A DNA stretch of 64,000 nucleotides from Escherichia phage CMS-2020a, in the sequence record CP053388.1, one strand, 5' to 3'. Under the pieces are notes generated by a model, which did not search any database, was not told the origin of the DNA, and was given only the letters and a program-made list of their open reading frames with translations. The position numbers were made by a program, and so were the translations under genes. Positions 5,301 through 35,950 of this stretch are shown here, one piece after another (the first letter of the stretch is position 1; every line of letters starts with the position of its first letter).

Positions 5301-7041
5301 TTCCATTGCCTGCTCGTAGAACCAGTTCTGAAATGCCTGCCTGATGTGGGGAACCGACGTTGTAACCAGCGCCACCAATCAATGCGATGTAAACGATGGA
5401 ACTCGCTTGTGGCATGGTAACCGTAGCCAGTTTGAACCACCCAGCCCCGCCAGAGAAAGACATCGTTACTGAATTTAAAGTACCAATATCTTTCGGCGTT
5501 AATGTTATATCCGCAGTCAGTGCTTTTCCGTTAACTTTTCGGTTAGATGGCACCCTGCTATTCGCATTGTCATTGGCTGCTTTAACTGCTTTTGGCGTTG
5601 CGGCCAGCGATTCACTGGTGCTATCAACAGCACTGCTAAGTTTCACAACACCTTTAGTTGTAAGGCTTGCGTCTTCCATCGCAACTGCACCGGCAATCTC
5701 TTCAGCACGATCAGCAGCAGCTTCCGCACGGGTCGCAGCGGATTCAGCAGCAGTTTTGCTCTGAGATGCTGCCGTCGCACTGCCTGCCGCCTCTGTTGCT
5801 TTCGTGGATGCCGTCGTGGCGCTGCCCTTCGCTGCTGACGCCTGTCTGGTCGCCTCATCTTTTGAAGCAGACGCAGATGATGCCGATGACGCTGCCGAAC
5901 TGGCGGACGATGCGGCTGCCGTTTTTGAGGATTCTGCACGGGTTTCCGACGCTTTCGCGTTCGTTTCGGATGTCTTCGCTGCGGAAGCAGACCTCGCTGC
6001 TGCGCTGGCCTGTTCAGTGGCTTCGCCAGCCTTCGTTGTGGCTGTTGAAGCAGACGATGCGGCACTTTCTGCCGATTTTCCGGCGGCGGTGGCACTGGCT
6101 GAGGCCTGCCCGGCACTTGTTGACGCGGCACTGGCAGACGACGCAGCCGCTGTTTTTGAGCCTGCCGCAGCTGAGGCACTCTGTCCCGCTGCCGTTTCAG
6201 AAGACCTGGCGTTCGTCTCGGACGTTTTTGCCGCCTTCGCGGAATTGCCTGCCGCTGTTGCCGAGGAGGCTGCACTACTGGCGCTCGAGGCTGCGCTCGT
6301 TTCTGATGATTTTGCCGCCTCTTTTGAAGCCGACGCATCTCTGGCTGAGGTGGCAGCTTCTGACGCTTTCGTGGTCGCGGTGGATGCAGAAGTGGCTGCA
6401 GATTTTTGTGACGCTGCAGCATTCGTTTCAGATTTTTTCGCAGCAGTTGCACTCGCACTTGCGGCACTTTGTGAGGATGCCGCAGCGGATGCACTTTGAG
6501 ACGCTTGAGAGGCTTTTTCTCCAGCGATATTGGCGCTTTCTGCTGCTGCGGCAGCACTGGCCGCCGCCTCACGAGCTTTGTCGCCAGCAGCATCAATCGC
6601 GTCAGTGTTATTTTTATACCACTCAACGTTTTCGTTGTGCTCGTTGACGATCTGCATTAGCGGCTTAACGGTCACTTCTGTACCGTCTTCACGCTCGATT
6701 GTCACCTCATCCAGAGCAGTCAACCAACTGCGCATGGACTTGGAATCAGCCGACATACGCGACATTAGTGCTGTAAAGCGCGCGCTAAACTGTGTTAAGT
6801 CGCCTTCATAGGTCGTAATGATTCGGCACGGAACTTCAGACTGAGTTTCGCCGGTATAAGGTTCTGAGAGAACAATGTTCGTATCACTGGTTACGCGCTT
6901 GATCTCATACAGCTTATTGTCGGGGCCAATGACGATCATCCCCGGCAACACACCATTAGCTGTTACGTTCCAGGCTGTCCCTGCCCCAACCAGAGTATTG
7001 CTACCCTGTGTAAATGTGATAGTACCTTCCCTGTACCACAT
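2311..7041 (-). CDS. long tail fibre protein with Ala/Ser-rich stalk, duplicated receptor-binding-type modules and C-terminal intramolecular chaperone (S74-like) domain
   Basis: 1576 aa; repeated TIGGVxFDGSxNIxL and NAATATKLQTAR fibre repeats; two copies of the MSFSGGAGWFKLATVTMPQASS module; C-terminal SDRRSKRNI motif. Confidence 0.9.
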   Translation of the reverse strand: MWYREGTITFTQGSNTLVGAGTAWNVTANGVLPGMIVIGPDNKLYEIKRVTSDTNIVLSEPYTGETQSEVPCRIITTYEGDLTQFSARFTALMSRMSADSKSMRSWLTALDEVTIEREDGTEVTVKPLMQIVNEHNENVEWYKNNTDAIDAAGDKAREAAASAAAAAESANIAGEKASQASQSASAAASSQSAASASATAAKKSETNAAASQKSAATSASTATTKASEAATSARDASASKEAAKSSETSAASSASSAASSATAAGNSAKAAKTSETNARSSETAAGQSASAAAGSKTAAASSASAASTSAGQASASATAAGKSAESAASSASTATTKAGEATEQASAAARSASAAKTSETNAKASETRAESSKTAAASSASSAASSASSASASKDEATRQASAAKGSATTASTKATEAAGSATAASQSKTAAESAATRAEAAADRAEEIAGAVAMEDASLTTKGVVKLSSAVDSTSESLAATPKAVKAANDNANSRVPSNRKVNGKALTADITLTPKDIGTLNSVTMSFSGGAGWFKLATVTMPQASSIVYIALIGGAGYNVGSPHQAGISELVLRAGNGNPKGITGALWKRTAVGLTNFAWINTSGDTYDIYVEIGNYATRVNIHWDCTANATVSIYTSPTYSASKPSSVTDGVVYTMYSTHQKPTPLDIGALPTTGGTVSGPLSVTGGLTGSLNGNASTATKLQTARSIGGVVFDGSANINLPGVNTTGNQNTTGNAATATKLQTVRKISGVPFDGSTDITLTAAHVAAFARRATGSYADADGGVPWNAESGAYNVNRTGHSYILANFYTGLGSCRTLQIKAHYKNGGLFYRSSRDGYGFESGWEQVYTTGFMPQPADINAPTAAAGWLNSGNGTAFTTAQFITWLNNQGAFTNKHWIARCSWTYANNNYIDDTGCGRIDLSGSVIEVFSNKATSHYTIRVTTTTTSGHGGVNNAEFIYVYNGSDYAPGWRRSYNTRNKPTASDVGALSLSGGALTGGLTAAGEIISKSANGLRIAYGNYGFFIRNDGSNTYFMLTASGDTLGSWNGLRPIIINNTSGAVTIGNGLNVTGGINGSLNGNAATATKLQTARTIGGVSFDGSANINLPGVNIAGNQNTTGNAATATKLQTARTINGVSFDGSKNIELTPRSIGTINSATMSFSGGAGWFKLATVTMPQASSVVYISLIGGAGFNVGSPQQAGISELVLRAGNGNPKGITGALWRRTSVGFTNFAWVNTSGDTYDIYVEIGNYATGVNIQWDYTSNASVTIHTSPTYTANKPTGLTDGTVYVIYSSHIKPTAADVGALSLSGGQLNGALGIGTSSALGGNSIVLGDNDTGFKQNGDGILDVYANSAHVFRFVNSTLQSLKPLSVTGDITSSAWVYANRFSINSGSGAWIDMRNQNVIFGRNAVSTSSAQALLRQDHADRKFFLGGLGNSQFGFYMINNSRTANGTDANAYLQNDGTWVCGGNGSFNDVYIRSDRRSKRNIRKIERALDKLDRIEGVLYEIQVCDRYEQSGGLIAQDVQNVQPELVTVDHNDQSGEPRLRLNYNGVIGMLVEAVKELREEVRELKAKM
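3125..3840 (-). repeat. intragenic direct repeat block, copy 2 (module X2 plus fibre-repeat set 2) within tail fibre gene
   Basis: About 80-85% nucleotide identity to 4760-5470; antisense ORFs at 3515 and 5414 start with the same MVTVASLNHPAPP peptide. Confidence 0.75.
4760..5470 (-). repeat. intragenic direct repeat block, copy 1 (module X1 plus fibre-repeat set 1) within tail fibre gene
   Basis: Paralogous to 3125-3840 (offsets about 1.15 and 1.9 kb for the two sub-modules). Confidence 0.75.
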
Positions 7042-7083
7042 GTTGAATATGCTCCTTGATTTGGCGGGCTATCCTTGCCCGCC

Positions 7084-7104
7084 ATTAAGTAAATACTTAC
7101 CTAT
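7084..7104. promoter_or_regulatory. motif B palindrome
   Basis: attaagtaaatacttacctat between J and tail fibre genes. Confidence 0.5.
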
Positions 7105-7134
7105 TTTTACCGATATAAAATTTTTTTTCCACCA

Positions 7135-10100
7135 TCACAGACGGCCAATTCTTACTCGTAAGACGTTGTTATCGTCATAAACGTCAATCCGCTGACCATT
7201 TATAACCAATCGCCCATTGCCGCCGCTATTACCGTTGATCTCAAGCGTTCCATTTTTGCCGAACCGCCATCCAGATCTACCGCTAACAAAATTGGTAGAT
7301 TGCAGATCGCCTACTTTTGCATTGGTGATTGTGCCATCCTTGATATACGCTCCATTCATATAGGCGATACTGTTTTCGATAACAAATGGCGTTGTGATCT
7401 TCCCGTTAACAGAGTTGACCAAACCAAACCTGTCAGCCTGCACCAAAAACTGAGAAAGGCCAGTGGTGTCGATACCAAGCGCAATACCAGCAACATACTT
7501 CTGCCCTCCGCTCGTTGAAGTTTCCATTTTCAACGTCCACGCGGTTGACACTTTTTTGTTGGTATCAGCAATAGCTGTTGCCTGCTGTTGAATTGTCGCG
7601 GTATTTCCATCCACCTCTGCTTTCAGAGTATCGATTCGCCCACTCAGAGCATTATCTGCCTGCGTTCTCGCTGTCGTTTCAGTTGTTACCGCCGCGGAAA
7701 TGTTGGCTGCCGTTTGAGACTCTAAGTTTGTGATTTGAGTCGCCAATGCGGCATCTTGCTCTGTACGCGTTTTCGTTTCGGTTGCTACAGCCGCTTTAAT
7801 ATCCTCTTTGTATTGAGAGGTCAGCTTGGTGATCTGAGACGACAACGCCGAGTCAGCATCAGTTCGAGCCTGCGTTTCAACTGCAACGGCCGCACTAATA
7901 TCTTTCGCTGTCTGTGCTTTTAAACTTGAAACCTCTTTTGTTAAAGCGGTATCACCATCTGCACGAGCCGTTGTTTCTCTGGCAAGAGACGCCTCGAGAT
8001 CATTAGCTTTTGCTGTAAGAGACGTAATCTGGGTAGACAATGCACTATCGGCATCAGTCCTTGCTTTTGTCTCTACAGCAACCGCTGCGGCAATATCAGT
8101 TCCGGTTTGTGCTCGCAGGCTGTTAATTTCTCGTGAGAGCGCCTGGTCAGCACTTGCCCTGGCCTCCTGCTCCTGAGTGATGGCAGCGGATATATCACCG
8201 TCAACCTTTGACTGAAGCTGGTTTATTTGTTTGGCTAACGCAGAGTCCCCGCTTGCTCGAGCCTCCTGCTCACTACGTATTGCAGCAGAAATATCATCAT
8301 CAACCTTTGCCTGAAGTTGGGTGATCTGGCTTGCCAGAGCCGAATCTTCCGTTGCTCGGGCTTCTTGCTCTTCCTTAATAGCTGCGACGATATCGTTGCT
8401 TACTTTCGACTCAAGCTGAGTGATCTGTGTCGTCAGAGCTTCATCGGCAGATGTACGAGCCTCCTGCTCTGTACTAATCGCCGCGCTGATATCTCCTTCA
8501 AACTTAGATTGCAGCTGAGTGACACGCTTTGCCAACGCTTCATCGCCATCGGCACGAGCGGTGGACTCTTCCAGAATACTGGCCTTAATGTCTTCGCCAA
8601 TTTCTACGCGAATTTCCTCAACCTTCGTGGCTATTGCAGACATATCATCAGCAAAGGTTTTCTGTGTTGTTGCGATCTTCGCGTTATTGACCATCTGCTT
8701 GTGCTGGTCTTCATCTTGACGAAGAGCCAGGTCAATATTTGTTTTGGCTAACGCCTCAATGTTCGTAGTCAGTTCTGCACTGGCACGATCGACCTCTGCA
8801 ACCGTCTTTTTCATTTCTTCAACGGCAGCGGAGCTTTCCTCTACCGTTGACTGCAACACTTCCAGTTGTTTAGCGTTTGCAGCATCGCCTTCAACACGAG
8901 CCTCGCTTTCCTTAGCAATAAGAGCCGCCGCTTCATCTCTTGCAGCCTTTATTGCCTCGACTGTATTAGCGAGAGCTTTATCGTGTTCAGATACGGTGTT
9001 TTCGATTTCAACAATTGCAGCATCAGTAGCATCAATTTTTTCAAACGCTTCATTGACCTTGTCAATCGTTGCCGAAACCTCACCTTTAAGCTCGGTTTGT
9101 GCGTTCTCCAAAGCATCGCTACGCTCGTTGAATTTTATTTCAAAATCCGCGAGGTTATCGCTGAACTGCTTATCTAATTCAGCTATATCTTCCTTAACGT
9201 CGTTTACCGCCCCCTCCAAAGATTCGACGCTCTGGTTGATATGCTCATTTAACTCGTCAACTGCTTCTTGAGAGGCTTTGCTGTTGATGTCCTCAAGCAG
9301 AGCCTGACCAAGCTCGGAAGATGTAATTTTGCCAGTCAGGAACGACAGTACATCGCGAGTTGTCGCCTCTGTACCCAAGTTTGAGTTCGGAGGACTTAAC
9401 ATACCTCGCTTGTTCGATGCTCGAACCCAGTAATACCACGTTTCGCTATCCCCAAGACCAGCATGTGTAAAGGTGGTGCTTGCAGACTCTGCGATCAGTT
9501 TCGCCGTATCCAGATTGTTGGTCTGGGATGCGTAAACATTAATGTGATCAAGGTCTACCGAATCTGGATTAACCCAATTCAGTATCACATTACGATAGTC
9601 TCCAACGGCCGTTAATGACGTTGGGGAATCCGGCGGTGTCATTGTGCCCAACACCTGATAAACGGTACTGATAATCTCTGTTTTTTTACCGTTGAATGAA
9701 ACCGCATACAGCTGGAAGTCGTAGCGTCCATTCTCCGCGACATTAACGATTTCGTATTGCTCTTCGGTTACACGCGCCGATTGCCAGTTCGATACATTGT
9801 TTTCATCAGAACGTCGCCAACTGATCCAATACTCTGGAGATTTCCCTTCCCATGTTGCAGTCAGTTTTACTGACAGGTTGCCAGGGCTTGAGAGATAAGT
9901 CCCTTCGGTGATTTGCAAATTAGACGGCTTGGAGTAAGTCGGGTCCAATACCGTCGTATTCTGCGGGATAAGCGTTGCACCATTGTCGATTGCCTCATAT
10001 TTAGACGGATTGTTCTCAACAGCGGTGATGTCAAAGCTACCCGGCGTTTCCCCCTGCGCGATGTTAACGATGCGAACGCGCATAGGTTCGAGATCTGGTT

Positions 10101-25919: not shown

Positions 25920-27494
25920 TCACTCGTTCTCTTGAGTAGATGAGTCCCCATTCCCTCGGGGTTGATCTTGCCCGCTTTCTTGGGCTGCACCACGATAATA
26001 AGTAAGTACTGACTTATTTTCAAGGGTATTTAGATCATTTTTTGGAGGAAAATTCAAGAGATCTTTATCAAATTCCTTTTTCATCGCCTCAGTAATGTTC
26101 GGGAAAATCTTCTCAATAAGCATTTCCATCTGGTGACGACGTACAGAGTCCGGTGCCTGAAGTAATGACAGTTTCTCGGCAACAGAAAATTCATCAGTAA
26201 GGCCACGAATATCGAAACTTTCTGGATACGCAATTAAAGAGTGGTCTTCGTCCAGATCTGCCCCCATCCATTTCGCAACCAGTAGCATGATTTGGCGTTC
26301 AGCCCTTTCCAGACGCTCTGCTTTTGTGACAAGCAAGCTATTTACACGCTGGAAGTCATACATTTTTGCGGCACCAGATGAATTATCGATTCCCTGTGCG
26401 TTGTCCTGCTTCGTTCGCTCACCAGCTACACCAACTGAATGGTAGATTTCGTTAATCACCGTCTTAATCGTAGTGATGATCATCTGAGCTTGTTTCGGGT
26501 CTGGTGACAGATAAAACGGCTGGTTTCCACCTTCAGAATCGTAGGTGAAGACTCGCTTTGTGCCCATTTCAAGCACTTTAGTGTGGTTTTCATCACCAGG
26601 TAAAAGCGACTGTACCGGTATAGCCAACTGGCTAAATGTCTGATCCTGAATAATGGCATCAAGGTTTGACAGATAGTTTGCAACCGCACGATCAAGATAA
26701 GCGATATCATCGATCAACGATGGGCTGAAATACGGTGATTCACTTTCTCCAATACAATCAACAGGAAACACAGGAACTACGCCGAGATTATGCTCACCGC
26801 TATCCTCTAAAATAACTTTTGCCTGACGGCGACCTGCTCCACCAGCGCCCTTCTTCACTTCCTCACGGAACAGATACCACTCGTTTTGTGTCCACAGACG
26901 ATAACGTTGGTATTCCTGACCTGTAGAAGTAAAAGGATCTGCGTCATCACGAGCGACTTCCACAATTAACGCCCACAACATATTCCCGTCGTCGTCCCAT
27001 GCCACATCCAGCATTTGCTGAGGTGAAATCCAGTAGGCGTAGGCGCGAGCATCTTTCTTTTTCTCGTCAGCTACTGACTCAACATCACCACTCATCGTGC
27101 TATCGACAACAACCCATATGCGACCGTAAATAGACGACTGCAAATCAATAGCGGCCATAAATGAGTCAATAGAGGCATTCTGGCGAGTCGCACGTTTCCA
27201 GAAATTGCGGATCTGCTCTGGTGCCTCTTCGATATTTCTATGAATGTCTTCTTTAAAGAGATATTTGTTGATGAGGTTTACCACCTCACGAGTGTGGTTG
27301 AAGCGATAAGCACGTTCAACTCGCTCCTTAAACTCCTGATCTCCCTCTTTAAAGTAACGAAAGATATTGTCTGTAAACCAACCACGCCCGCCAGCGTAAG
27401 TGCTGGCGAGGAAGTCCCAATGTTCTTTTTTCTTTTCGTATTCCGGGTGGCGTCGCGCCACCAGATCCTTAATTTGTTTGTCGTTCAATTCCAT
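25920..27494 (-). CDS. portal protein
   Basis: 524 aa, immediately downstream of terminase large subunit. Confidence 0.75.
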   Translation of the reverse strand: MELNDKQIKDLVARRHPEYEKKKEHWDFLASTYAGGRGWFTDNIFRYFKEGDQEFKERVERAYRFNHTREVVNLINKYLFKEDIHRNIEEAPEQIRNFWKRATRQNASIDSFMAAIDLQSSIYGRIWVVVDSTMSGDVESVADEKKKDARAYAYWISPQQMLDVAWDDDGNMLWALIVEVARDDADPFTSTGQEYQRYRLWTQNEWYLFREEVKKGAGGAGRRQAKVILEDSGEHNLGVVPVFPVDCIGESESPYFSPSLIDDIAYLDRAVANYLSNLDAIIQDQTFSQLAIPVQSLLPGDENHTKVLEMGTKRVFTYDSEGGNQPFYLSPDPKQAQMIITTIKTVINEIYHSVGVAGERTKQDNAQGIDNSSGAAKMYDFQRVNSLLVTKAERLERAERQIMLLVAKWMGADLDEDHSLIAYPESFDIRGLTDEFSVAEKLSLLQAPDSVRRHQMEMLIEKIFPNITEAMKKEFDKDLLNFPPKNDLNTLENKSVLTYYRGAAQESGQDQPRGNGDSSTQENE

Positions 27495-27505
27495 TTGAAT
27501 AACCT

Positions 27506-27528
27506 TAGATAACTACTTACCTATCGAG
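27506..27528. promoter_or_regulatory. motif B palindrome
   Basis: tagataactacttacctatcgag between terL and portal genes. Confidence 0.5.
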
Positions 27529-28777
27529 AACCACCAAGAATAACACGGTTTTTGACTGGATACCTACGATGTACTGGATAGCCCAATGCGTCTGCACTAT
27601 GCTCAATGCCACCTGTCTTATCCATATCTCGTGTTCCAGGCTTGTAGATGACTTTTTCCAGTGAATCAATCAAATGCTTGCACTTCGGATCGATATACAG
27701 CCGGATATCTCCAGATGCGGACATCAGCATTCGGTTAACAGCATTAACACGATCCGCAATTGGCGGGTGCTTTTTCGAATAATCGACACGTAAGAATCCC
27801 TTCTCTTTGAATATGTCTACGTCAGACTCCCCACGAGCATGTTGGCGATAAGCACCTGCCGGATCTGGAAATACCGTTACCTGTGATTTCCAGCGCCAGA
27901 AGCGTCTCTCAAGCTCATCACAAACTTCTGCCGTGTTAGAGGAAAAGAGCACCAATTCATCAATTGCCCATAGCTCACCATTTGGCTGAGGTTGCAAAAT
28001 TACTGAAGACATCGGGTCAATGTTGAAGTCCTGCCCTACCCATATAGGCAACCGAGGGTTGAACTGAAGCGGTTTTACATGCACGTTACGATCGAACGGG
28101 TAGTAAACGCGCCCGGACATGTTCTCAAAGCTGGCCAGGTACTCCTGAGCGAACGATTTGGGGTCCATATCGTTCTTAGCAGCTTCAATTTCCGCCGTAG
28201 GTACAAACGGAGAATCGGCAGTTACAAACTGCCAGCTCTTCCACTGTCCCTTTCTTTGCAGCTCTACGTTCTGGCCTATCGTCCACAGTTTGTGAAATTC
28301 CGAGAAGCCTTTTGGCGTACCAATGATCAGTGCACCGCCGCGTGTCGATGAAAGAGTAGGTCGTAACACCTTGTACCAGGTGTCAGCCTTCATATCCTGA
28401 AATTCATCAAGCACTACAAAATGCAACGCTACGCCGCGCAGAGTGTCAGGCTTATCAGCACCTTTGAGGGCGATCTCCGAACCGTTCTTCAACACGATTG
28501 TCATCGTGGTGTCGTTCTTTTTCCTAACCCACTTACGAGGCAGAACTTCCTGTAGATCGTCCCACAAAATCTGGCGAGCCATCTGGTAAGTAGGAGCGAC
28601 ATACCAGACCCTTTGCTTTTTTTCCTTTGCCGCCGCACGAATAATAGTGGAGATCGACAACCGGGATTTTCCCCAGCGTCGACCAGCACAAACAACTTTA
28701 AATCGATGCGGAGACTGGAAGACTTTCATCTGTCCAGAATGCAGTTGCACAAGACTGAGCGAGGACGGGATTGCCAT
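27521..28777 (-). CDS. terminase large subunit
   Basis: Walker A-like CAGRRWGKS, Walker B VVLDEF, C-terminal nuclease-type Asp motifs (DFNIDP, DPAG). Confidence 0.85.
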   Translation of the reverse strand: MAIPSSLSLVQLHSGQMKVFQSPHRFKVVCAGRRWGKSRLSISTIIRAAAKEKKQRVWYVAPTYQMARQILWDDLQEVLPRKWVRKKNDTTMTIVLKNGSEIALKGADKPDTLRGVALHFVVLDEFQDMKADTWYKVLRPTLSSTRGGALIIGTPKGFSEFHKLWTIGQNVELQRKGQWKSWQFVTADSPFVPTAEIEAAKNDMDPKSFAQEYLASFENMSGRVYYPFDRNVHVKPLQFNPRLPIWVGQDFNIDPMSSVILQPQPNGELWAIDELVLFSSNTAEVCDELERRFWRWKSQVTVFPDPAGAYRQHARGESDVDIFKEKGFLRVDYSKKHPPIADRVNAVNRMLMSASGDIRLYIDPKCKHLIDSLEKVIYKPGTRDMDKTGGIEHSADALGYPVHRRYPVKNRVILGGSR

Positions 28778-29409
28778 TATTCGTCCTCCCCTTCACTTCC
28801 ATCATCTGTCGCATCAAATTCGCTTAGAGCTTCTTCTTCCAACGTCTCAAGCAATTCGTCATCGATGATTTCAGGCTCGTCGTCTTCCTGACGTAATTTC
28901 GCCACCTGGGAAGGCGTAAGCTCACCAAATACCAGGTTCGGAATTTCTTCCTCGTCATTTTCCGCATGATCCATGCCCAATGCTTTGGACGAAACTTCAA
29001 AGCATTTTGCAAGGGTATTACTGGCTCTCTGTAAGCTCTTGAGAGAATCCTCAATCGCCCCTAAAGGCTTACCCTCACGTTTGGCCGTAGTGACTTCGAC
29101 CATCACCATCTGCCCCAACGCATACGCCCAGCCGTCATAACGTGTACGACGTTCTTCTATCTTTTCCGCACGGGCTTTAGCGCGAAGCTCTGCGTCAGAT
29201 TTAAGAGACTCACGAACCATCTTCCCAACAGAGTCCGCGCCTTTCTCTAATCCTCGCTTTTTGAAATGTCTGGAGAGTGTTTCACGACGAATGCCGTACT
29301 CTTCCTCCAGCTTTGAGAGTGTATATTCGCCTGACGTCCATTTGGCTTCAGCTTCGGCCCACTCCGCTGGTGTCAGGCGAGTTTTTACCTCGTCTTTTTC
29401 GACCGTCAT
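28777..29409 (-). CDS. terminase small subunit (putative, HTH plus acidic tail)
   Basis: N-terminal HTH-like region, acidic C-terminus, immediately upstream of terL. Confidence 0.6.
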   Translation of the reverse strand: MTVEKDEVKTRLTPAEWAEAEAKWTSGEYTLSKLEEEYGIRRETLSRHFKKRGLEKGADSVGKMVRESLKSDAELRAKARAEKIEERRTRYDGWAYALGQMVMVEVTTAKREGKPLGAIEDSLKSLQRASNTLAKCFEVSSKALGMDHAENDEEEIPNLVFGELTPSQVAKLRQEDDEPEIIDDELLETLEEEALSEFDATDDGSEGEDE

Positions 29410-29418
29410 AGATCCCTC

Positions 29419-29450
29419 TAAAACACACAGAGCGCGTCCATGCGCTCTAA
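29419..29450 (-). terminator. hairpin plus U-tract in terS leader (candidate regulated terminator)
   Basis: Minus strand reads AGAGCGCATGGACGCGCTCT followed by GTGTGTTTT, then GAGGG RBS and terS ATG. Confidence 0.5.
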
Positions 29451-29492
29451 AACAACTTGTTTACTGCATCTGCTAACCAACTTGTTTTCTGG
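29448..29492. promoter_or_regulatory. two copies of motif A (AAACAAnTTGTTT palindrome) upstream of terS
   Basis: aaaacaacttgtttac and aaccaacttgttttctgg. Confidence 0.55.
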
Positions 29493-29525
29493 GGTGTTTA
29501 ATTAGGTCTGGCATGTCTTACGAAG

Positions 29526-29580
29526 CCTGCTTCCGTATATATTTAATAAGTTACTTATTATTTATATATACAGAAGCAGG
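29526..29580. repeat. 55-bp near-palindrome, copy 1
   Basis: cctgcttccgtatatat ... atatatacagaagcagg arms with central AATAAGTtACTTATT palindrome; copy 2 at 59621-59677. Confidence 0.8.
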
Positions 29581-29604
29581 TCTTTAAATAAGCTCCCAGA
29601 CCGA

Positions 29605-29871
29605 TTACATCACCAGTAACTTCGCTTTGGCTCGACCTAAAGTAGTTAACCCAAGAGTTCGGCGGTGATAGCGATTGTCACTGCGTTGGCGCGTATGCCC
29701 TTTCTCCACCAGCCCCTTTTTTATCAGAGCGCGAATTGAGAACTGGATACTTTGCTTGGTTGTCTTGTACGGCAAAACTTCAAGCAATTCGTCCAGGTCA
29801 AGTAGATGACCTCGCTCATAACCGAGATTGAGCGTTTTGATGATGTCCTTTTGTTTATCGGTTAACGTCAT
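29605..29871 (-). CDS. small winged-helix DNA-binding protein (putative regulator)
   Basis: 88 aa; helix-turn-helix-like segment and basic C-terminus. Confidence 0.45.
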   Translation of the reverse strand: MTLTDKQKDIIKTLNLGYERGHLLDLDELLEVLPYKTTKQSIQFSIRALIKKGLVEKGHTRQRSDNRYHRRTLGLTTLGRAKAKLLVM

Positions 29872-29880
29872 GGCAAATCC

Positions 29881-30780
29881 TTATGCCGGTAAAGCAATTT
29901 CTAACGGTTTATCCAAAGGTTGTTTGTCGAATGCCAGCAGTGGCAGCGTGTCAGGCAGTCGACGACCAAAGTCAGGGTTTCGATACACACCATACAACGG
30001 AGACGTAAAGCTCAGGTTGTGAATGTCCTTGAGCAGCTTCACAATGCTGGCCTCGTCCACCAGACTGTCGGCAATGTCCTGAATCGTCGTGCCACGATTC
30101 CGCCCAGCTTTTGCCAGGGAACTGTTCTTGTGGTAGTCCGCCACCAGATCACGCAGTGCACGGCGACGACGAGACTCGCTCATAGCGAACAACTCTTTGA
30201 CGATCGCCTCGTTATCACCCGGGTCGGAGCGGAAATGGCGCTGGAACACACGCAGTGCACTTTCATAGCTCTTCGGTCGCTCAGGGCGGATGAACTTAAA
30301 CCCTGCTTTCATGGCGAAGGGATTGTATTTGCTCATCGATGACTGGATCTCAATGATTGGCCGGTCATGCATCCTGCTAACCAGGTTAATCATTCGATAA
30401 GAGACGCCTACGCCACGGTACTGAGTATCCACAACTGAGCGGCTGATCACCGCAAAGTTGTTATTCACGTACCGGCCCCAGTACTGGTTAGCCACGGTGG
30501 TATTGGTAGTTGGTTTCAACTTAGGAAACATGCGATGGCGAGGTGCCAGCAGAAGTTTCGGGTAAGCCATAACCACGACGCCCACCAGACGGTCATCCAG
30601 TTCGCAGCGATAGTATGTTGGCGCGAAAGGTTTGCCGTCTGTTTTGTAGTGAAGCGATTTAAGAGCGTGCCAGTCCTCTACAGTTCCCTTTGTGACAGTC
30701 ATTCGCTCCAGAAAGTCCAGATGACGCGGAAACTCTTCAGGGCGGTAGCGTTTGATGATGATATCTGCCATCTCGATCAC
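29881..30780 (-). CDS. GNAT-like acetyltransferase-fold protein (function unknown)
   Basis: VVDTQYRGVGVSYRMINL resembles the GNAT acetyl-CoA-binding motif. Confidence 0.45.
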   Translation of the reverse strand: MIEMADIIIKRYRPEEFPRHLDFLERMTVTKGTVEDWHALKSLHYKTDGKPFAPTYYRCELDDRLVGVVVMAYPKLLLAPRHRMFPKLKPTTNTTVANQYWGRYVNNNFAVISRSVVDTQYRGVGVSYRMINLVSRMHDRPIIEIQSSMSKYNPFAMKAGFKFIRPERPKSYESALRVFQRHFRSDPGDNEAIVKELFAMSESRRRRALRDLVADYHKNSSLAKAGRNRGTTIQDIADSLVDEASIVKLLKDIHNLSFTSPLYGVYRNPDFGRRLPDTLPLLAFDKQPLDKPLEIALPA

Positions 30781-31031
30781 CTGCGCTCGATATTGGCATT
30801 GATGAAATCCAGGCGAAGAGACTCCATCGCCCCTACCATGACATACGGGCGCCCGCCGTTATGCCAGCAATCAAGAACACTGCCGTCGTTGTTGATCATC
30901 AACAGCGCCAGGCTCTGGCTTTTTCCTTCTCTGGCGTGCTGAAGTGCTTCTTCCAGCAGGCGGATGACTTCCACGTTGTTGTTATCAGTCTCTTTCGATG
31001 GCTTCAGCTCTACGATCTTCAAATCAGGCAT
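30777..31031 (-). CDS. hypothetical protein
   Basis: 84-aa ORF translationally coupled to flanking genes. Confidence 0.4.
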   Translation of the reverse strand: MPDLKIVELKPSKETDNNNVEVIRLLEEALQHAREGKSQSLALLMINNDGSVLDCWHNGGRPYVMVGAMESLRLDFINANIERR

Positions 31032-31662
31032 ATTCCACCTTCACGCGTTCTTTGTAGTGCTTGGTGATCTGCATATCCGGGCGCAGCGCGTTCTTCAGGT
31101 CTTCGTGAGTCGTCGCCACCATTACCGTCGCACCAACCTTTCGAGCGGCACGCTGGAGGTTAGATGCCACAACCTGAGCGGTTACACGGTCGAGAACAGC
31201 GCCGAACTCGTCAGCAGCCCACACTTTAGCGCCTGACTCAATCAGTTTGGCAATCTTGAGACGATATTTCTGACCGTCTGACATTTCAGAAGGCTTGCGA
31301 ACAAACAGATATGCATCGTTCAGACCAGCCATAGATAACAACCCAAGCGCATCACTGGTAGTTTTGCCCAGTTGGTCAATGACGTTAACCTCATTATCGA
31401 AGGTAAAATCATCGATGGAGGCCACAGATAGCCCTTCATCCTTCATCTGGTGTTGCAGCTCGCGCAGCACAACGGATTTGCCGGAACCGGATTGGCCGGT
31501 AATGTACACCACATCGCCCTGCTTCACTTCCAGCTCCAGATTGTCGTAAAGCGTCCACTCTTTTTCGTCCAGGCCAAGCCCGAACGACTCAGCGATTTCC
31601 AACGTGCGCGTGGTTTTATTTACGCGTGTCTGAAACGATACGTTGATGATGTATTTGCTCAT
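31024..31662 (-). CDS. stand-alone ABC-type ATPase
   Basis: Walker A GQSGSGKS, signature-like MSDGQKYRL, Walker B VWAADE, H-loop TTHE. Confidence 0.7.
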   Translation of the reverse strand: MSKYIINVSFQTRVNKTTRTLEIAESFGLGLDEKEWTLYDNLELEVKQGDVVYITGQSGSGKSVVLRELQHQMKDEGLSVASIDDFTFDNEVNVIDQLGKTTSDALGLLSMAGLNDAYLFVRKPSEMSDGQKYRLKIAKLIESGAKVWAADEFGAVLDRVTAQVVASNLQRAARKVGATVMVATTHEDLKNALRPDMQITKHYKERVKVEYA

Positions 31663-32360
31663 GCAGCCATCTCCCCGGAAGAGATCTTCTCCGCATATGC
31701 CACAAATGCGTCTACCCCGCTTTCTCCCGTCATTTCTTCCATGTGGGCAAGCAAATCACCAACAACAATGGCAGAGCCAGCAGGGAGCGTTTTAAAGCCC
31801 AATACGTCGACAACACGTACTTCTTCCGCTGCAACTTCACGACTGATCTCGGTGTGTTCATCCTTCTGTCGTTTAGTTTCTTCGCCAAGATCGATAACTA
31901 GCGAGTCGGTGTCCATTTCTTCTGTCATACTGCCAACGAGAACATTCAACTCACGCTCTTCAAAGCCGAAAACCTCGATATCGTCCAGAACAAGCGACTC
32001 AAGCTCTTTCTGTAGCTTAATTGCATCGTAATCAATGCTGGCAAGTCGGTTATCTTCAAGGCGCTTCGCACGAACCTCGTCATCACTGAGATCATCGCGA
32101 ACAATAACCGGTACGCGCTCAAGTCCAGCAAAAATTGCAGCCTCACGGCGGCCGTGGCCAGTAATAATTACGTCGTTCTTATCGACCGTAATTGGCTGGT
32201 CAAATCCGCGCTTTTTAATGGCTGCGGCTAGATCTCGGATCTGCTGTTCATCATGCTTTTTGGCATTCATCTCATAGGGAATAAGATCTGCCGGGTCGCG
32301 ATATACGATTTCAAACTTTTTGGTCATTACATACGCTCCTTGTAGTAGTCGACCAGCCAT
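31659..32360 (-). CDS. ParB-like nuclease-domain protein
   Basis: ITGHGRREAAIFAG ParB/Srx-type motif. Confidence 0.65.
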   Translation of the reverse strand: MAGRLLQGAYVMTKKFEIVYRDPADLIPYEMNAKKHDEQQIRDLAAAIKKRGFDQPITVDKNDVIITGHGRREAAIFAGLERVPVIVRDDLSDDEVRAKRLEDNRLASIDYDAIKLQKELESLVLDDIEVFGFEERELNVLVGSMTEEMDTDSLVIDLGEETKRQKDEHTEISREVAAEEVRVVDVLGFKTLPAGSAIVVGDLLAHMEEMTGESGVDAFVAYAEKISSGEMAA

Positions 32361-33025
32361 ACCAGAGCCTCACCAGCGTTCTCCATTTCATTACCGGTGT
32401 TAATAGCCTGCTCTTTGATGATGTTTTTTATGGTTTCTGCAACACGATCTGACGCATCGAAAGTTACTTTGAAGCGCATGGTCTGATGTTCCGCACCCAC
32501 ACGTTCGGTTTTCTCTCGTTTGTCGGTATCGACAGGCTCATCACTACCACGAGACAACGCCTCCAGTGCTTCAAGGTCGATTGCCGCCTCTTTTGCTAAA
32601 ACCATCGAGATTTCGTCGTCATACGGGGCGATTTCAGACAGTTGATAGTCAAGTTCTGACTGAATTTCTTCAATGAAGCGTTGCAATGCGATTTGGTCGT
32701 CTTCACCGTATCGCTCGTTGTCCACCAGTGACATCTGTTTAGCTACGACATCGCTAATTTTGCCCACAGAAAGCACCGGAACCGTTGAAATTCCTTGCTC
32801 AATAGCAGCACGCCAGCGATGTTCGCCGCCGAGGATTTCAAAAAATCCATCTTCAAGTTCACGAGCCAAAATTGGCTTAAAAAAGCCCAATTTTTCGATA
32901 GAACCTTTCAGTTTTTCAAAATTCTGCGCACCAACCGAATTGGTGTTCCAGGTATTCGGGCGAAGGTTGGCAACATCAACCTGCAAAATCGTGATTTTTA
33001 CATCCATTTTATTGCTACAATCCAC
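32327..33025 (-). CDS. ParB-like nuclease-domain protein (second paralogue)
   Basis: ILGGEHRWRAAIEQG ParB/Srx-type motif. Confidence 0.65.
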   Translation of the reverse strand: MDCSNKMDVKITILQVDVANLRPNTWNTNSVGAQNFEKLKGSIEKLGFFKPILARELEDGFFEILGGEHRWRAAIEQGISTVPVLSVGKISDVVAKQMSLVDNERYGEDDQIALQRFIEEIQSELDYQLSEIAPYDDEISMVLAKEAAIDLEALEALSRGSDEPVDTDKREKTERVGAEHQTMRFKVTFDASDRVAETIKNIIKEQAINTGNEMENAGEALVWLVDYYKERM

Positions 33026-33089: not shown

Positions 33090-34649
33090 ATGACTGTTCG
33101 GATTGTATCTAACGCAGTAAATGCGCTTATTTCTGGCGCAGATGACAAGGTAAAGCAACTGGTGCAGCAAATGTTGAGCTACGAAGTCGAGACTGGCGAC
33201 TGGAAGGGCACAAGCACGATGTTCAACTGGAGTAAAAACTCGTTCCCTGCTGGCTTTGCCAAGCCTGTAGCGGCGAACTTGAACAAGGCGGGCATCAAAT
33301 GTGTTCATATCCGCAAAGACAAAGCCCCGGCGCTTGGTAAACCAAATCCGGCGGTTAACCCATTCCCATACAATCCTGATTATGCGTATCAGGATCAGAC
33401 TGTGGAAACACTGGTTCGAGAGGGAATGATGATTGCGCAGATCGCTACTGGTGGCGGGAAATCTAACGTTGCCTGCAAAGCAGCTGCACGTATCGGTCGA
33501 ATGACATTATTTTTAACAACTCGCTCTGTTCTGATGTTTCAAATGGCCGAAAACTTCCAGAGATCCATCGACTACCGCGCCGAAAATGGCGAACCGTGGT
33601 TAAAGGGCCAAAAGGTTGGAGTCATTGGCTCGGGTGAGTTCCAGGTATCACGACATATCAACGTCGCTACAGTTCAAACTCTGGCAAGTTTCCTTGAAGA
33701 ACCACCACGCGATGCAACACCAGATAAAAAGAGCTACCATCTCAAACGTCGGGAGTTGGTGAAACGCTTCCTTTCAAGTGTGTCTCTGCTTATTCTGGAA
33801 GAAGCGCATGAGTCTTCAGGCTCTAATTTCTATGACATTGCCAGATTATGTGTGAACGCAGACTATCGTCTGGCGCTTACAGCCACGCCGTTCATGAAGG
33901 ATTCGACGGAAGCCAACATGCGCCTGATGGCGGTGGCCGGGCGAATTGAAATTAAAGTCACAGAAAAGTACCTGATTGATCGAGGCATTCTGGCAAAGCC
34001 GTACTTCCTTTATCATAAAGTTGCCTACAAGCCAGACGAGGCCAGAATCAAGGCCGAACTTGCCAACAAACACCTCAATTTTAGAGTTGGTATGAGCACC
34101 GCCTACCAAAAGGCTTATCAGTTGGGGATCGTGTATAATTTGGGACGTAACGAGGCCATAGTGCGCGAGGCATTGCTTTATAAGCAACATTCACTCAACT
34201 GCATGACTCTGGTTCGTCTTAAACGCCACGGGCAAATCCTGATGGAGATGATGAAGGAGTCAGGTCTTAAAGTTGATTTCATCTATGGGGAATCTAACCA
34301 GACGACAAGGCAAGCAAAGCTGAATAGTTTAGCGTCTGGTGAAATAGATGTTTTAATAGGCTCGACTATTCTGGATGTTGGTGTTGATGTGCCAAGCGTT
34401 GGTGCGGTCATTCTTGCTGGTGGTGGGAAAGCAGAAGTTGAAATGAGACAGCGTGTCGGTCGTGGCTTACGAGCCAAAAAAAATCAGGCAAACGTGTGTT
34501 TTATCACTGATTTCATTGACATTAGCAACAAATACCTGTTGTCTCACTCTTATGAGCGAAAACACATCATCGACACCACACCTGGCTTTGCAGAAGGTGT
34601 ATTGCCTATTGATGGAGCATTCGATTTTGGAGTTCTGAAACGAGATTAG
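33090..34649 (+). CDS. SF2 (DEAD/DEAH-type) helicase
   Basis: Walker A ATGGGKS, DExH-like LEEAHE, C-terminal helicase domain motifs. Confidence 0.8.
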   Translation: MTVRIVSNAVNALISGADDKVKQLVQQMLSYEVETGDWKGTSTMFNWSKNSFPAGFAKPVAANLNKAGIKCVHIRKDKAPALGKPNPAVNPFPYNPDYAYQDQTVETLVREGMMIAQIATGGGKSNVACKAAARIGRMTLFLTTRSVLMFQMAENFQRSIDYRAENGEPWLKGQKVGVIGSGEFQVSRHINVATVQTLASFLEEPPRDATPDKKSYHLKRRELVKRFLSSVSLLILEEAHESSGSNFYDIARLCVNADYRLALTATPFMKDSTEANMRLMAVAGRIEIKVTEKYLIDRGILAKPYFLYHKVAYKPDEARIKAELANKHLNFRVGMSTAYQKAYQLGIVYNLGRNEAIVREALLYKQHSLNCMTLVRLKRHGQILMEMMKESGLKVDFIYGESNQTTRQAKLNSLASGEIDVLIGSTILDVGVDVPSVGAVILAGGGKAEVEMRQRVGRGLRAKKNQANVCFITDFIDISNKYLLSHSYERKHIIDTTPGFAEGVLPIDGAFDFGVLKRD

Positions 34650-35425: not shown

Positions 35426-35950
35426 ATGACAACCAAAGATATTACCTACGGTATCCAAGCTGAACTCTGGCCGCGAGATTACACTAACGTTGAAAAACTA
35501 CTGATGTTCTGGCGCAGAGAACAAATTCCTGTAAGGGTCACTCTCGAAGATGGCCAGGCGTTTTGCATGTACGTTTATGGCCTCATGCCATCTCGTAACA
35601 AAGTTGACCTTTGCCCAGCCCCTTTTGACAAAGAAAATCGTATAAGGCTCCCACTTGAACGCATTAGTACAATTGAATCAGGTGTGGTTGACAGTATCGC
35701 TCACGATTTCAAAGGTCGACTAACAGTTCACCCTGATTATGTCGATAATCGGCCATCACGCCGCGATTTTTTTGCAATTTGCAACCAAGCCTACAAAGCA
35801 AACAAATCTATAAGGGTGTACATGGCGGATGGCCGTGAAATTGAGGGGGTGTCAGCAGGTGCAGATGCTTGTCAGGTTACACTACGTGTCGAGAACGGTA
35901 GAAAAATAGTTGTTTTGTTCGATTGGGTTGAACGAATTTTGCCTTTTTGA
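35426..35950 (+). CDS. hypothetical protein
   Basis: ORF starting MTTKDITYG after lipoprotein stop. Confidence 0.45.
   Translation: MTTKDITYGIQAELWPRDYTNVEKLLMFWRREQIPVRVTLEDGQAFCMYVYGLMPSRNKVDLCPAPFDKENRIRLPLERISTIESGVVDSIAHDFKGRLTVHPDYVDNRPSRRDFFAICNQAYKANKSIRVYMADGREIEGVSAGADACQVTLRVENGRKIVVLFDWVERILPF

Follow-up and report, generated by a model that had tools for sequence, protein, structure and literature searches.

Conserved ParB and split ABC-GNAT genes upstream of the terminase genes of an SSU5-like phage-plasmid, with a possible role in acylation of phage DNA

The window (the whole stretch of 64,000 nucleotides of sequence record CP053388.1 that was analysed) belongs to an SSU5-like phage-plasmid, and shows upstream of terS a minus-strand run of six genes (33025-29605) whose five core members form a module that is widespread in tailed phages, yet uncharacterised. 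Sequence comparison shows that its ABC and GNAT genes are the two halves of one predicted ATP-dependent acyl-CoA transferase, which in many other phages and proviruses is a single polypeptide (ABC-GNAT). ABC-GNAT regularly has a ParB2-type protein as its partner upstream and a large terminase gene as its neighbour downstream. We tentatively propose, as a possibility that stops short of being probable, that the module performs a ParB-assisted, ATP-dependent acylation of phage DNA, or of a DNA-bound target, before packaging; the acylation step is what we infer from the evidence described below.

Table 1. Features of the module and of the adjacent packaging region in the window.
Feature	Position	Strand	Description
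Portal	25920-27494	-	Synteny with SPP1_portal or portal-annotated genes of relatives
terL	27521-28777	-	Terminase_6N/6C; PHROG terminase families
terS	28777-29409	-	phrog_867; PHROG terminase families
Intergenic region	29410..29604	-	Candidate cos or regulatory site
wHTH	29605..29871	-	88 aa; small basic winged-helix protein
GNAT-fold acyltransferase half	29881..30780	-	299 aa
84-aa accessory gene	30777..31031	-	phrog_796
ABC ATPase	31024..31662	-	212 aa; minimal nucleotide-binding domain
ParB2	31659..32327	-	222 aa; second ParB/Srx-fold protein
ParB1	32327..33025	-	232 aa; ParB/Srx-fold protein
DEAD/ResIII helicase	33090..34649	+	Divergent from the operon

The initial annotation had described a six-gene operon upstream of the packaging genes, and all six ORFs were found where it had placed them. 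Adjacent genes overlap by 1 nt (ParB1/ParB2, TAATG), 4 nt (ParB2/ABC, ATGA), 8 nt (ABC/84-aa gene) and 4 nt (84-aa gene/GNAT, GTGA), while GNAT and wHTH are separated by a gap of 9 nt that contains AAGGA. Each of the six matches a populated PHROG family and they are far removed from chance ORFs. The 195 nt between wHTH and terS hold a 55-nt palindrome (29526-29580) and a terminator-like hairpin (29428-29449), and therefore terS is uncoupled from the operon. Among relatives, the palindrome covaries between T-A and C-G, and the linear records deposited for SSU5 and Cyrano have their ends at the place that corresponds to 29543-29544. The portal gene also matches Planctomycetota locus L100, and the helicase is located beside ParB1 throughout the lineage.

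The ABC protein matches ABC_tran (E 6e-13) and has a complete catalytic set: Walker A GQSGSGKS, signature MSDGQ, Walker B VWAADE and an H-switch. No permease partner was found nearby. Its full length aligns with the N-terminal domain of ABC-GNAT fusions of 450-500 aa (40-50% identity, E 1e-44 to 2e-68), whose C-terminal half matches the GNAT profile (hhalign 99.7%). In the product of the GNAT gene, the GNAT domain is N-terminal, measures about 165 aa and includes the acyl-CoA loop YRGVGVSYR; the C-terminal domain behind it is helical and conserved. The initial annotation was right in calling this protein GNAT-like but did not recognise ABC and GNAT as halves of a single split enzyme. Records give the Cyrano GNAT gene and GNAT-gene homologues a name of the COG2401/MK0520 type, 'ABC-type ATPase fused to a predicted acetyltransferase domain'. 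Both halves are homologous to this uncharacterised family, at the identity and profile values given above, although in the module they are two genes with an accessory gene between them; membership of such a family explains little.

The 84-aa gene is inserted where ABC and GNAT are split. Of 80 close relatives, 38 carry it, and Cyrano lacks it; relatives without it start GNAT at an ATG three codons inside the GTG used here. Other lineages show other small genes in this slot (Phage_gp49_66, RyR and DUF2829). It is an accessory insert in a variable slot, outside the module core, so that of the six genes of the initial set, all of them real, only five are core. The wHTH protein matches phrog_900 (E 2e-45) and, by profile, the MarR-family protein ST1710 (E 8e-4), which supports its earlier assignment; an alignment shows its position to be kept throughout the SSU5/Nickie/RHEph10 lineage.

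Both ParB-like proteins, recognised as such from the start, match ParB_N (E 3e-13 for ParB1 and 1.5e-8 for ParB2). ParB1 also matches phrog_723 (E 2e-79) and, in its N-terminal domain only, Spo0J/ParB/Noc structures (E 3e-9 to 1e-5). Translation may instead begin with the ATG at 33007, the start annotated in phage Cyrano, which would give 226 aa. Alignment of orthologues shows a Box II GGEHR and a conserved C-terminal segment, HQ.MRFKV...NAG.ALVWL. ParB2 matches phrog_930 (E 1e-112), phrog_498 (ParB-MTase, E 5e-32) and, in its N-terminal part only, PADLOC MTase_II (E 3e-17); its mechanical ORF extends to 32360, and the PHROG and orthologue alignments begin at M12. Its aligned motifs are PYE.NAK.H, GHGRR and DNR. 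The NTP-binding motifs are partly kept: Box I QPR is missing from ParB1, and in ParB2 a H replaces the catalytic E. No HTH was detectable in either protein. ParB2 is of the ParB type that occurs in fusions with phage DNA methyltransferases and, in other phages, directly upstream of ABC-GNAT; Orf23 of Lactococcus P335 matches the ParB2 profile with 99.7% probability.

Purifying selection on the five core genes is strong, with dN/dS values against SSU5 of 0.015-0.054 (0.016 for ABC), and the conservation of ABC and GNAT equals that of TerL. The order divergent helicase, ParB1, ParB2, ABC, a variable gene, GNAT, wHTH, terS, terL and portal is kept at about 40-45% identity in marine, Ectothiorhodospira and Piscirickettsiaceae contigs, in Nickievirus, and in Rhizobium and Stenotrophomonas phages, apparently virulent relatives among them; no homology to any characterised protein was found for the module. 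Fused ABC-GNAT adjoins ParB and/or TerL in Planctomycetota, Gemmataceae, Alcaligenaceae and Bathyarchaeia, as well as in S. pyogenes 315.4, Lactococcus P335, Leptospira LE4, Gordonia AnClar and Jace. In Bathyarchaeia the ABC-GNAT and TerL pair is present, and in one of these loci (L106) the two genes overlap by 4 nt. Among 80 diverse IMG/VR loci, ParB is directly upstream of ABC-GNAT in 56, TerL lies no more than 3.5 kb downstream in 41 and upstream in none; at least three TerL Pfam families are represented among ABC-GNAT loci. The order ParB, ABC-GNAT, terminase thus recurs across bacterial phyla. The initial annotation had rightly left the function open between partition, packaging and exclusion or defence; this recurrence favours a packaging-associated role among them.

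Some neighbours of ABC-GNAT bear on its chemistry. PanD and CoA-transferase genes are found in Jace and two further loci (L190 and L212), a Formyl_trans_N gene behind the tail genes of phiE255 and of a Porphyromonas phage (in the latter at the end of the record), and an ASCH/DUF3850 gene in 315.4, as the first downstream ORF in 4/78 and as the second once. These neighbours suggest acyl-donor or nucleobase chemistry. Coupling of an NTPase to a GNAT domain is known from TmcA/NAT10, RNA cytidine N4-acetyltransferases in which ATP hydrolysis drives the acetyl-CoA-dependent acetylation of cytosine. The likeness seen to the module is one of architecture (a P-loop NTPase coupled to GNAT): their NTPase is of helicase type instead of ABC, and their substrate is tRNA/rRNA. 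Mom of phage Mu is a GNAT-fold enzyme that modifies DNA adenine (PDB 8bv8); its similarity to the module is no stronger than that of generic GNATs, and it differs in having no ABC or ParB partner.

ParB-dependent DNA-modifying enzymes have been published. Phage thymine dioxygenases have ParB-like proteins that lack a DNA-binding domain as their activators on dsDNA, and ParB176 is required for the action of 5mYOX176 on double-stranded DNA (PMC13229309). As in the module, a short phage ParB-fold protein is there encoded beside the enzyme, with a nucleotide-binding domain, a C-terminal domain and no obvious DNA-binding domain; the module differs in that the partner is the predicted ABC-GNAT acyltransferase and not an Fe/2-oxoglutarate dioxygenase, and in having two ParB paralogues and an additional wHTH. 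The ParB fold has also been found fused with DNA methyltransferases, PUA-like DUF3850 and acetyltransferases (PMC12704722). The ParB domain of the prophage methyltransferase fusions (PF02195 and PF01555; phrog_498), phage-encoded like the module, is the one matched by ParB2, although the module has no methyltransferase domain and encodes its enzyme, an acyltransferase, separately. The ASCH protein YqfB hydrolyses N4-acylcytosines (PMC6972931). The PanD/CoA-transferase, formyltransferase and ASCH neighbours, together with these ParB-dependent enzymes, point to ParB-assisted DNA acylation; the matches of ParB2 to ParB-MTase families, the contrast in charge between ParB1 and ParB2 (pI 4.6 and 4.5) and GNAT and wHTH (pI 9.8 and 10.2), the recurrent gene order and the purifying selection were also counted in its favour.

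In the proposed mechanism, the acidic ParB-fold proteins would serve late in infection as adaptors or activators that are gated by a nucleotide and act on phage DNA once it has been replicated, and the basic wHTH would aid DNA targeting. ATP-driven dimerisation of the ABC domains would position the basic GNAT domain, which would acylate the bases of phage DNA (or perhaps a target bound to DNA) before or during packaging by the terminase. The donor would be acetyl-CoA in SSU5-like phages, and a custom donor such as beta-alanyl-CoA in phages with PanD and CoA-transferase. Several points stand against acylation. No chemical evidence for it was found in SSU5-like phages, Nickievirus, P335 or other carriers, whose genomes are routinely sequenced; an enzyme to supply the donor, an ASCH protein and a formyltransferase are all missing from the SSU5-type module itself; the informative neighbours occur in a minority of loci; no sigma-70-like promoter was found; and the NTP-binding motifs of both ParB proteins are incomplete.

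The tight linkage to TerL could equally fit control of the terminase or of packaging, and a somewhat unlikely alternative is that the module helps the terminase to start or control packaging at cos/pac without modifying DNA. The ParB-fold proteins and wHTH would mark or nick the packaging site, like the HNH proteins of some cos phages, and ABC-GNAT would acetylate a protein such as TerS, TerL, portal or a host nucleoid protein and so switch packaging on or off. In many lineages TerL or terS directly follows ABC-GNAT, the candidate cos palindrome abuts the module, the ParB/Srx fold includes nucleases, and the row in AnClar is ParB, cos, HNH, ABC-GNAT and terminase. Proteins, moreover, are the acetylation target of most characterised GNATs. 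HNH endonuclease genes directly beside cos and terminase genes are an established pattern (PMC3592412); they differ in fold, and the ParB-fold proteins here have no established nuclease motif. On the other side, a regulator that acetylates proteins is not expected to recruit PanD and CoA-transferase, formyltransferase or ASCH, and in phiE255 and Porphyromonas phages ABC-GNAT comes behind the tail genes, and the stretch examined contains no terminase gene. At least three unrelated TerL families are associated, and a specific protein-protein partnership with TerL is therefore less likely than a shared time and place of action.

It is distinctly unlikely that the module serves anti-defence or host takeover through an enzyme whose target is a small molecule, or RNA or protein of the host (for instance by acylation of an immune signalling nucleotide, a polyamine or an aminoacyl-tRNA), and that its proximity to the terminase is incidental. 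The slot within the module does gather small accessory genes, among them the RHEph10 gene for a protein of DUF2829, the Tad2 anti-Thoeris family, and an 'acr candidate' is annotated beside the ABC-GNAT gene in Porphyromonas phage records. Such genes are usually variable, whereas the five core genes are fixed and conserved like TerL; a basic wHTH and a ParB protein as regular partner suggest action on DNA, and the gene order counted in the IMG/VR loci is hardly incidental.

Superinfection exclusion, or anti-phage or anti-plasmid defence by an ABC ATPase with a nuclease, as had been considered initially, is very improbable. Pairs of this kind are common among defence systems, and weak PADLOC matches to mad3/mad8 and PtuA were obtained, but these span only the generic P-loop/ABC core. 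The bare nucleotide-binding domain differs from the long ABC ATPase typical of defence, TOPRIM, HNH and OLD-type nucleases are all absent, and the genes are core, syntenic with the packaging genes across phyla, present in phages reported as lytic and subject to strong purifying selection.

The least probable reading, also raised at first, is plasmid partition or maintenance, with two ParB proteins binding a centromere and the ABC ATPase replacing ParA: the element is a phage-plasmid, the ParB N-terminal fold is that of ParABS, the two genes are recorded as 'ParB-like partition protein' and a gene called parB serves as SSU5 marker in a screening scheme, but no ParA adjoins the pair, a ParA-like gene with a small downstream partner lies about 30 kb away in SSU5, and the ParB proteins do not reach the NCBIfam ParB cut-off (43 versus 58.45 bits), show no HTH and, inspected by eye, do not contain the ParA-binding motif LG[KR]GL. 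Furthermore, the module is kept in relatives with no plasmid-maintenance genes detected: the whole of it, in the same order, is found in Nickievirus, in which homologues of the SSU5 ParA and of the SSU5_069 replication protein are absent and of which one member is reported as lytic and psageB1 showed no temperate behaviour, and it is also found in the integrating prophages S. pyogenes 315.4 and Lactococcus P335.

If phage DNA is acylated as we tentatively propose, the pay-off for the phage would be an incoming genome shielded from host nucleases, and/or effects on charge and packaging.

The region of the window shares 98% identity with Escherichia phages CMS-2020a, PhiR41_1 and Cyrano, 86% with Salmonella phage SSU5 and 81-82% with Klebsiella phage-plasmids; the window therefore belongs to a phage-plasmid of the SSU5-like type, about 108 kb long. 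ORF calling found an operon that encodes, in order, two ParB-fold proteins (ParB1 and ParB2), an ABC ATPase, an 84-aa protein, a GNAT protein and a winged helix-turn-helix (wHTH) protein. Its genes meet in turn at TAATG, at ATGA, in an overlap of 8 nt and at GTGA; the last two are separated by 9 nt, in which an AAGGA ribosome-binding site lies. The mechanical start of the ParB2 ORF is at 32360 and the PHROG and orthologue alignments start at its M12, so that the gene overlaps ParB1 by 1 nt at 32327. The six genes belong to PHROG families 723, 930, 293, 796, 886 and 900, all of them populated, their dN/dS ratios against SSU5 range between 0.015 and 0.054, and the conservation of ABC and GNAT equals that of TerL. 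Five genes are present in 80 of 80 close IMG/VR loci and, contig-end cuts aside, are full length nearly throughout; the exceptions are an in-frame stop in three loci and a partial ParB1 match in one. The 84-aa gene is absent from Cyrano and from 42 of the 80 relatives, some of which have otherwise identical proteins. The coupled six-gene operon described in the initial annotation is thus upheld by its ORFs, junctions, populated families and low dN/dS, but the 84-aa gene is accessory, not core.

Positions of the module, its neighbouring features and selected related gene groups
Feature	Record	Coordinates	Strand	Description
Six-ORF operon	Window	33025-29605	minus	ORF calling
ABC gene	Window	31024-31662	minus	212 aa
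84-aa gene (phrog_796)	Window	30777-31031	minus	At the ABC/GNAT split; found in 38/80 close relatives
GNAT gene	Window	29881-30780	minus	299 aa
wHTH gene	Window	29605-29871	minus	88 aa
Near-perfect palindrome	Window	29526-29580		55 nt, CCTGCTTCTGTATATAT-N21-ATATATACGGAAGCAGG; wHTH-terS gap
Terminator-like hairpin	Window	29428-29449	minus	8-bp stem, 5 G-C pairs, then TGTGTTTTAG; 19 nt upstream of terS start codon
terS	Window	28777-29409		195 nt past wHTH; joined to terL by TAATG
Motif ATAATAAGTAA	Window	25995, 29551, 33037, 58103		Four copies (one mismatched) against 0.93 expected
SSU5_121 homologue	Window	35504-35947	plus	82% identity; SSU5_121 named 'transcriptional repressor'
gp85-gp88	Phage Jace (locus L175)	5947-8712		ParB, ABC-GNAT fusion, PanD (aspartate 1-decarboxylase, E 2e-33), CoA-transferase
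gp29-gp30	Burkholderia phage phiE255 (locus L178)	4456-6188		ABC-GNAT, then Formyl_trans_N formyltransferase
ABC-GNAT and formyltransferase	Porphyromonas phage (locus L180)	3501-5101		Formyl_trans_N formyltransferase after ABC-GNAT
TerL and ABC-GNAT fusion	Bathyarchaeia MAG (locus L106)	6433-9389		Adjacent pair, 4-nt overlap

Synonymous divergence from SSU5 across 29605-33025 is uneven, with dS of 0.34-0.63 for ABC, the 84-aa gene and GNAT and 1.35-1.55 for ParB1, ParB2 and wHTH, which suggests recombination (mosaicism) within the operon or added constraint on the central genes. In the composition profile, the GC skew changes at about 33-34 kb from negative to about zero or positive, which coincides with the point where ParB1 and the helicase diverge and the coding strand turns from minus to plus. 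The SSU5_121 homologue lies on this divergent arm, about 2.5 kb from the module.

The ABC protein is a bare nucleotide-binding domain with all catalytic motifs (Walker A GQSGSGKS, signature MSDGQ, Walker B VWAADE, H-switch TTHED and a Q-loop; ABC_tran E 6e-13). It shares these ATPase motifs with ABC transporter subunits; no permease or membrane subunit is encoded in the operon, and all NCBIfam transporter models score far under their cut-offs. The GNAT protein shows no significant Pfam match, and its family profile has no match among PDB sequences even at E 10. Its AlphaFold model was unusable from the single sequence (pLDDT 41) and reached a pLDDT of 91.3 with a 97-sequence alignment; the protein has a GNAT fold, for which Foldseek found only generic GNATs in BFVD. 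The acyl-CoA pyrophosphate-binding loop (R/Q-x-x-G-x-G/A) corresponds to R122-G-V-G125-V-S, with R122 and G125 invariant in the 97 sequences. Furthermore, its pI is basic (9.8), and its C-terminal domain is helical and conserved.

The GNAT-family profile, run against 1.84 billion representative proteins, gave 987 matches, many of them proteins of 450-500 aa matched over approximately residues 200-480 and carrying an ABC domain N-terminally. In these ABC-GNAT fusions the acyl-CoA loop reads RG.GLG. The alignment of the SSU5-type GNAT family with the fusion family by hhalign has a probability of 99.7% (E 1.7e-26, columns 9-264), and the ABC protein is 40-50% identical to the N-terminal domain of the fusions over its full length (190-218 residues, E 1e-44 to 2e-68). 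On the basis of these matches, the two genes encode one enzyme, the split form of the ABC-GNAT fusion, whose halves are parted in the window by the 84-aa gene and are not one polypeptide. Two viral contigs (L216 and L250) have the fused form together with an SSU5-like wHTH and terS and two ParB genes upstream. In the source records, the Cyrano GNAT gene and its homologues are named 'ABC-type ATPase fused to a predicted acetyltransferase domain', the COG2401/MK0520 type; COG2401 is a descriptive name that databases have long used for the fusion.

The small genes found precisely at the split point are variable, and this point is a hotspot for accessory genes. The same slot is seen in five other loci (L003, L004, L006, L170 and L171), and it holds Phage_gp49_66 and RyR-domain genes in Ectothiorhodospira and a DUF2829 gene, of the Tad2 anti-Thoeris family, in Rhizobium phage RHEph10. 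Unusual architectures were found in three representative proteins (P0191, P0175 and P0155): a 1260-aa protein that combines a family B DNA polymerase with ABC and GNAT, an intein with a LAGLIDADG endonuclease within the ABC domain, and an ABC-GNAT with a C-terminal TFIIB repeat.

The gene order divergent helicase-ParB1-ParB2-ABC-(variable)-GNAT-wHTH-gap-terS-terL-portal recurs in many lineages, with protein identities of about 40-45%. It was found in Ectothiorhodospira, marine and Piscirickettsiaceae contigs and in isolated phages of Pseudomonas syringae (Nickievirus), Rhizobium (RHEph10 and relatives), Stenotrophomonas and Xanthomonas. The fused form adjoins ParB and/or TerL in Planctomycetota (fusion-ParB-HTH-TerL-portal in locus L100), Gemmataceae, Alcaligenaceae and Bathyarchaeia. 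Three Bathyarchaeia MAGs (L106, L091 and L093) show TerL and the fusion as an adjacent pair. The flanks of the L106 pair are cellular, with PmbA/TldD downstream and an EamA transporter about 3 kb upstream, and the pair could be a provirus edge or a domesticated two-gene unit. The neighbours in the archaeal loci L092 and L093 are mostly unannotatable.

Searching by tblastn with the Jace fusion retrieved 81 phage records. The gene orders inspected are ParB-ABC-GNAT-ASCH-x-TerL-portal in S. pyogenes 315.4, Alt-Orf23-ABC-Orf25-Orf26-terS-terL in Lactococcus P335, where Orf23 is a ParB2-type protein (99.7% probability), ParB-fusion-three small genes-TerL in Leptospira LE4, ParB-cos-HNH-fusion-MTase-terminase in Gordonia AnClar, and ParB-fusion-PanD-CoA-transferase in Jace, where terS lies 3 kb downstream. 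Relatives of the fusion alignment are encoded by at least 567 viral contigs of IMG/VR, and 373 contigs were retrieved when the SSU5-type GNAT alignment was scanned separately. Neighbours were counted at the 80 most similar but mutually diverse IMG/VR loci: 56 have a ParB-fold ORF immediately upstream and on the same strand, 41 have TerL within 3.5 kb downstream (none has it upstream), 33 have both and 15 neither. The composition of the module and its genomic coupling are seen directly. The TerL proteins at these loci fall into three or more Pfam families (Terminase_6, Terminase_3 and TerL_ATPase), in addition to GpA, and therefore the linkage is not simple co-inheritance with one packaging module.

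Both ParB proteins have the ParB N-terminal (CTPase) fold (PF02195, E 3e-13 for ParB1 and 1.5e-8 for ParB2), and solved Spo0J/ParB/Noc structures match them over this N-terminal domain only. Their TIGR00180 (NCBIfam) scores, 43.3 and 43.0 bits, are below the cut-off of 58.45. No HTH family was found in either at E ≤ 0.1, and the ParA-binding motif (L/F/I)G(K/R)G(L/F/I), read by eye, is absent from both sequences. In relation to the canonical CTP-site motifs (QPR, GERR and ENxxR), ParB1 keeps GGEHR and DNER and lacks the Box I QPR; ParB2 shows PYE.NAK.H, GHGRR and DNR and lacks the catalytic E. ParB2 has the same signature as the ParB domain found in fusions with phage DNA methyltransferases (phrog_498, E 5e-32), and its match to the PADLOC MTase_II model (E 3e-17) covers the N-terminal, ParB part only. 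The conserved C-terminus of ParB1 was considered as a ribbon-helix-helix DNA-binding domain and found no support in a PDB profile search or in Pfam. Both proteins are strongly acidic (pI 4.5 overall, 4.2-4.4 in the C-terminal halves).

The wHTH protein has a basic pI of 10.2; in a profile comparison it matches a MarR-family regulator across the recognition helix and wing (E 8e-4). The gap between its gene and terS contains a palindrome whose symmetry is kept in relatives by paired T-A versus C-G changes, and the linear SSU5 and Cyrano records were deposited with ends that correspond to 29543-29544, on the inner edge of one palindrome arm. The palindrome is a candidate cos or operator site; no similar palindrome was found in relatives at ≤75% identity. 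Given the terminator-like hairpin in the same gap, terS may be transcribed apart from the module or with attenuation. A consensus scan found no sigma-70 promoter upstream of ParB1. The motif ATAATAAGTAA has two of its copies in the regions that precede ParB1 and terS; as a shared late-promoter motif it was rejected, one copy being within the portal gene and the copies too few to interpret.

A minority of the phages carry further enzymes beside the module. PanD and CoA-transferase genes are neighbours in Jace and in two IMG/VR contigs (L190 and L212), and this cluster points to a phage-made unusual acyl-CoA donor, such as beta-alanyl-CoA. The ABC-GNAT and formyltransferase genes of phiE255 and the Porphyromonas phage lie after tail genes, without a ParB gene and, in the latter, at the end of the record; in Mu-like phiE255 this is the position where Mu carries mom. 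ASCH/DUF3850 proteins are encoded in 315.4, by four of 78 first downstream ORFs and by one second downstream ORF. The ASCH protein YqfB hydrolyses N4-acylcytosines (PMC6972931).

The ABC-GNAT is predicted to transfer acyl groups, and we infer that the acceptor would be DNA or a DNA-bound target. A reading as nucleic-acid modification draws on the precedents for ParB adaptors, on the informative neighbours and on the logic of NTPase-GNAT enzymes. The RNA cytosine acetyltransferase TmcA/NAT10 couples an NTPase to a GNAT, and Mom is a GNAT fold able to modify DNA. ParB-like proteins without a DNA-binding domain are needed by a subclass of phage thymine dioxygenases on dsDNA (PMC13229309), and a survey of the ParB-CTPase fold reported that phage fusions to DNA methyltransferases and to PUA-like DUF3850 are frequent, and also a bacterial fusion to an acetyltransferase (PMC12704722). 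The module resembles these ParB-dependent 5mYOX and ParB-methyltransferase systems in having a short ParB without a DNA-binding domain beside an enzyme, and it may be classed with the ParB-assisted enzymes acting on DNA in phages. In addition, the charge pattern of acidic ParB proteins, basic GNAT and basic wHTH fits a complex assembled on DNA.

Our leading proposal, held tentatively and at somewhat less than even confidence, is that ParB proteins assist an ATP-gated transfer of acyl groups onto phage DNA, or onto a target bound to DNA, ahead of packaging. In a narrower version, which we regard as rather unlikely, ABC-GNAT would be an N-acyltransferase of DNA bases making, for example, N4-acetyl- or N4-aminoacyl-cytosine. 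In that version the ParB-fold proteins would load or activate ABC-GNAT on replicated phage DNA just before packaging, PanD and CoA-transferase would supply phage-specific acyl donors, the formyltransferase would further tailor the mark, and the ASCH/PUA-like proteins would be its readers or erasers. The search found no chemical evidence that any carrier phage has acylated DNA. As the main rival we see a packaging accessory whose role would be to acetylate a protein or aid cos recognition, and this too we regard as rather unlikely.

The initial annotation had left the function open between a partition or packaging module and an exclusion or defence module. Plasmid partition was rejected. The ParB proteins share the N-terminal fold of canonical ParABS but lack its adjacent ParA, a detectable HTH and its ParA-binding motif, and their TIGR00180 scores are below cut-off. 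SSU5 carries its ParA-like gene elsewhere, at 30.5 kb with a small gene after it and about 30 kb from the module; homologues of this ParA and of the SSU5_069 replication protein were not found within the 64-kb window, and the ParA position would fall just outside it. Furthermore, the module is carried by integrating prophages and by Nickievirus genomes, which are collinear with SSU5 and in which tblastn gave no match to SSU5 ParA or SSU5_069 and no repressor or integrase is annotated. Nickievirus psageB1 is reported to be lytic, with no temperate behaviour observed (PMC8537276). The defence option fares no better: PADLOC gave partial, generic matches to P-loop/ABC cores only (mad3, mad8, PtuA and BrxD) and no match to a system-specific model of the PARIS, Gabija or Septu type (long ATPase with a TOPRIM/HNH/OLD nuclease), NCBIfam had nothing specific for the module proteins, the ABC protein has only 212 aa, and the genes are core, with ABC and GNAT conserved like TerL.

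In the literature searched, we found no description of the ParB/ABC-GNAT/terminase three-part module or its function. No study was found under COG2401/MK0520, under ABC ATPase with GNAT and ParB or under N4-acyl phage DNA, and nothing was found on PanD in hypermodification; an earlier computational mention of the module elsewhere is possible. The genes themselves are already present in many deposited genomes, under misleading names.

Hundreds of phages and prophages carry genes under the names 'ParB-like partition protein' and 'ABC transporter' that appear to form one functional unit. Its carriers include model and clinically relevant elements, such as the SSU5/pHCM2-type phage-plasmids of Enterobacteriaceae, prophages of S. 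pyogenes and Lactococcus P335. Whichever acceptor is right, the partition and ABC-transporter annotations mislead and give no basis for inferring plasmid maintenance. If packaging proteins are acetylated, the module would be an unrecognised regulatory layer of terminase function. If DNA is acylated, this would be a new chemical class of phage DNA modification and a categorically new system, with the first enzyme family for N-acyl DNA marks, and it would extend the recent finding that enzymes which modify DNA have the ParB fold as an adaptor; the N-acyl mark would then be a widespread, undescribed modification in tailed phages of bacteria and archaea.
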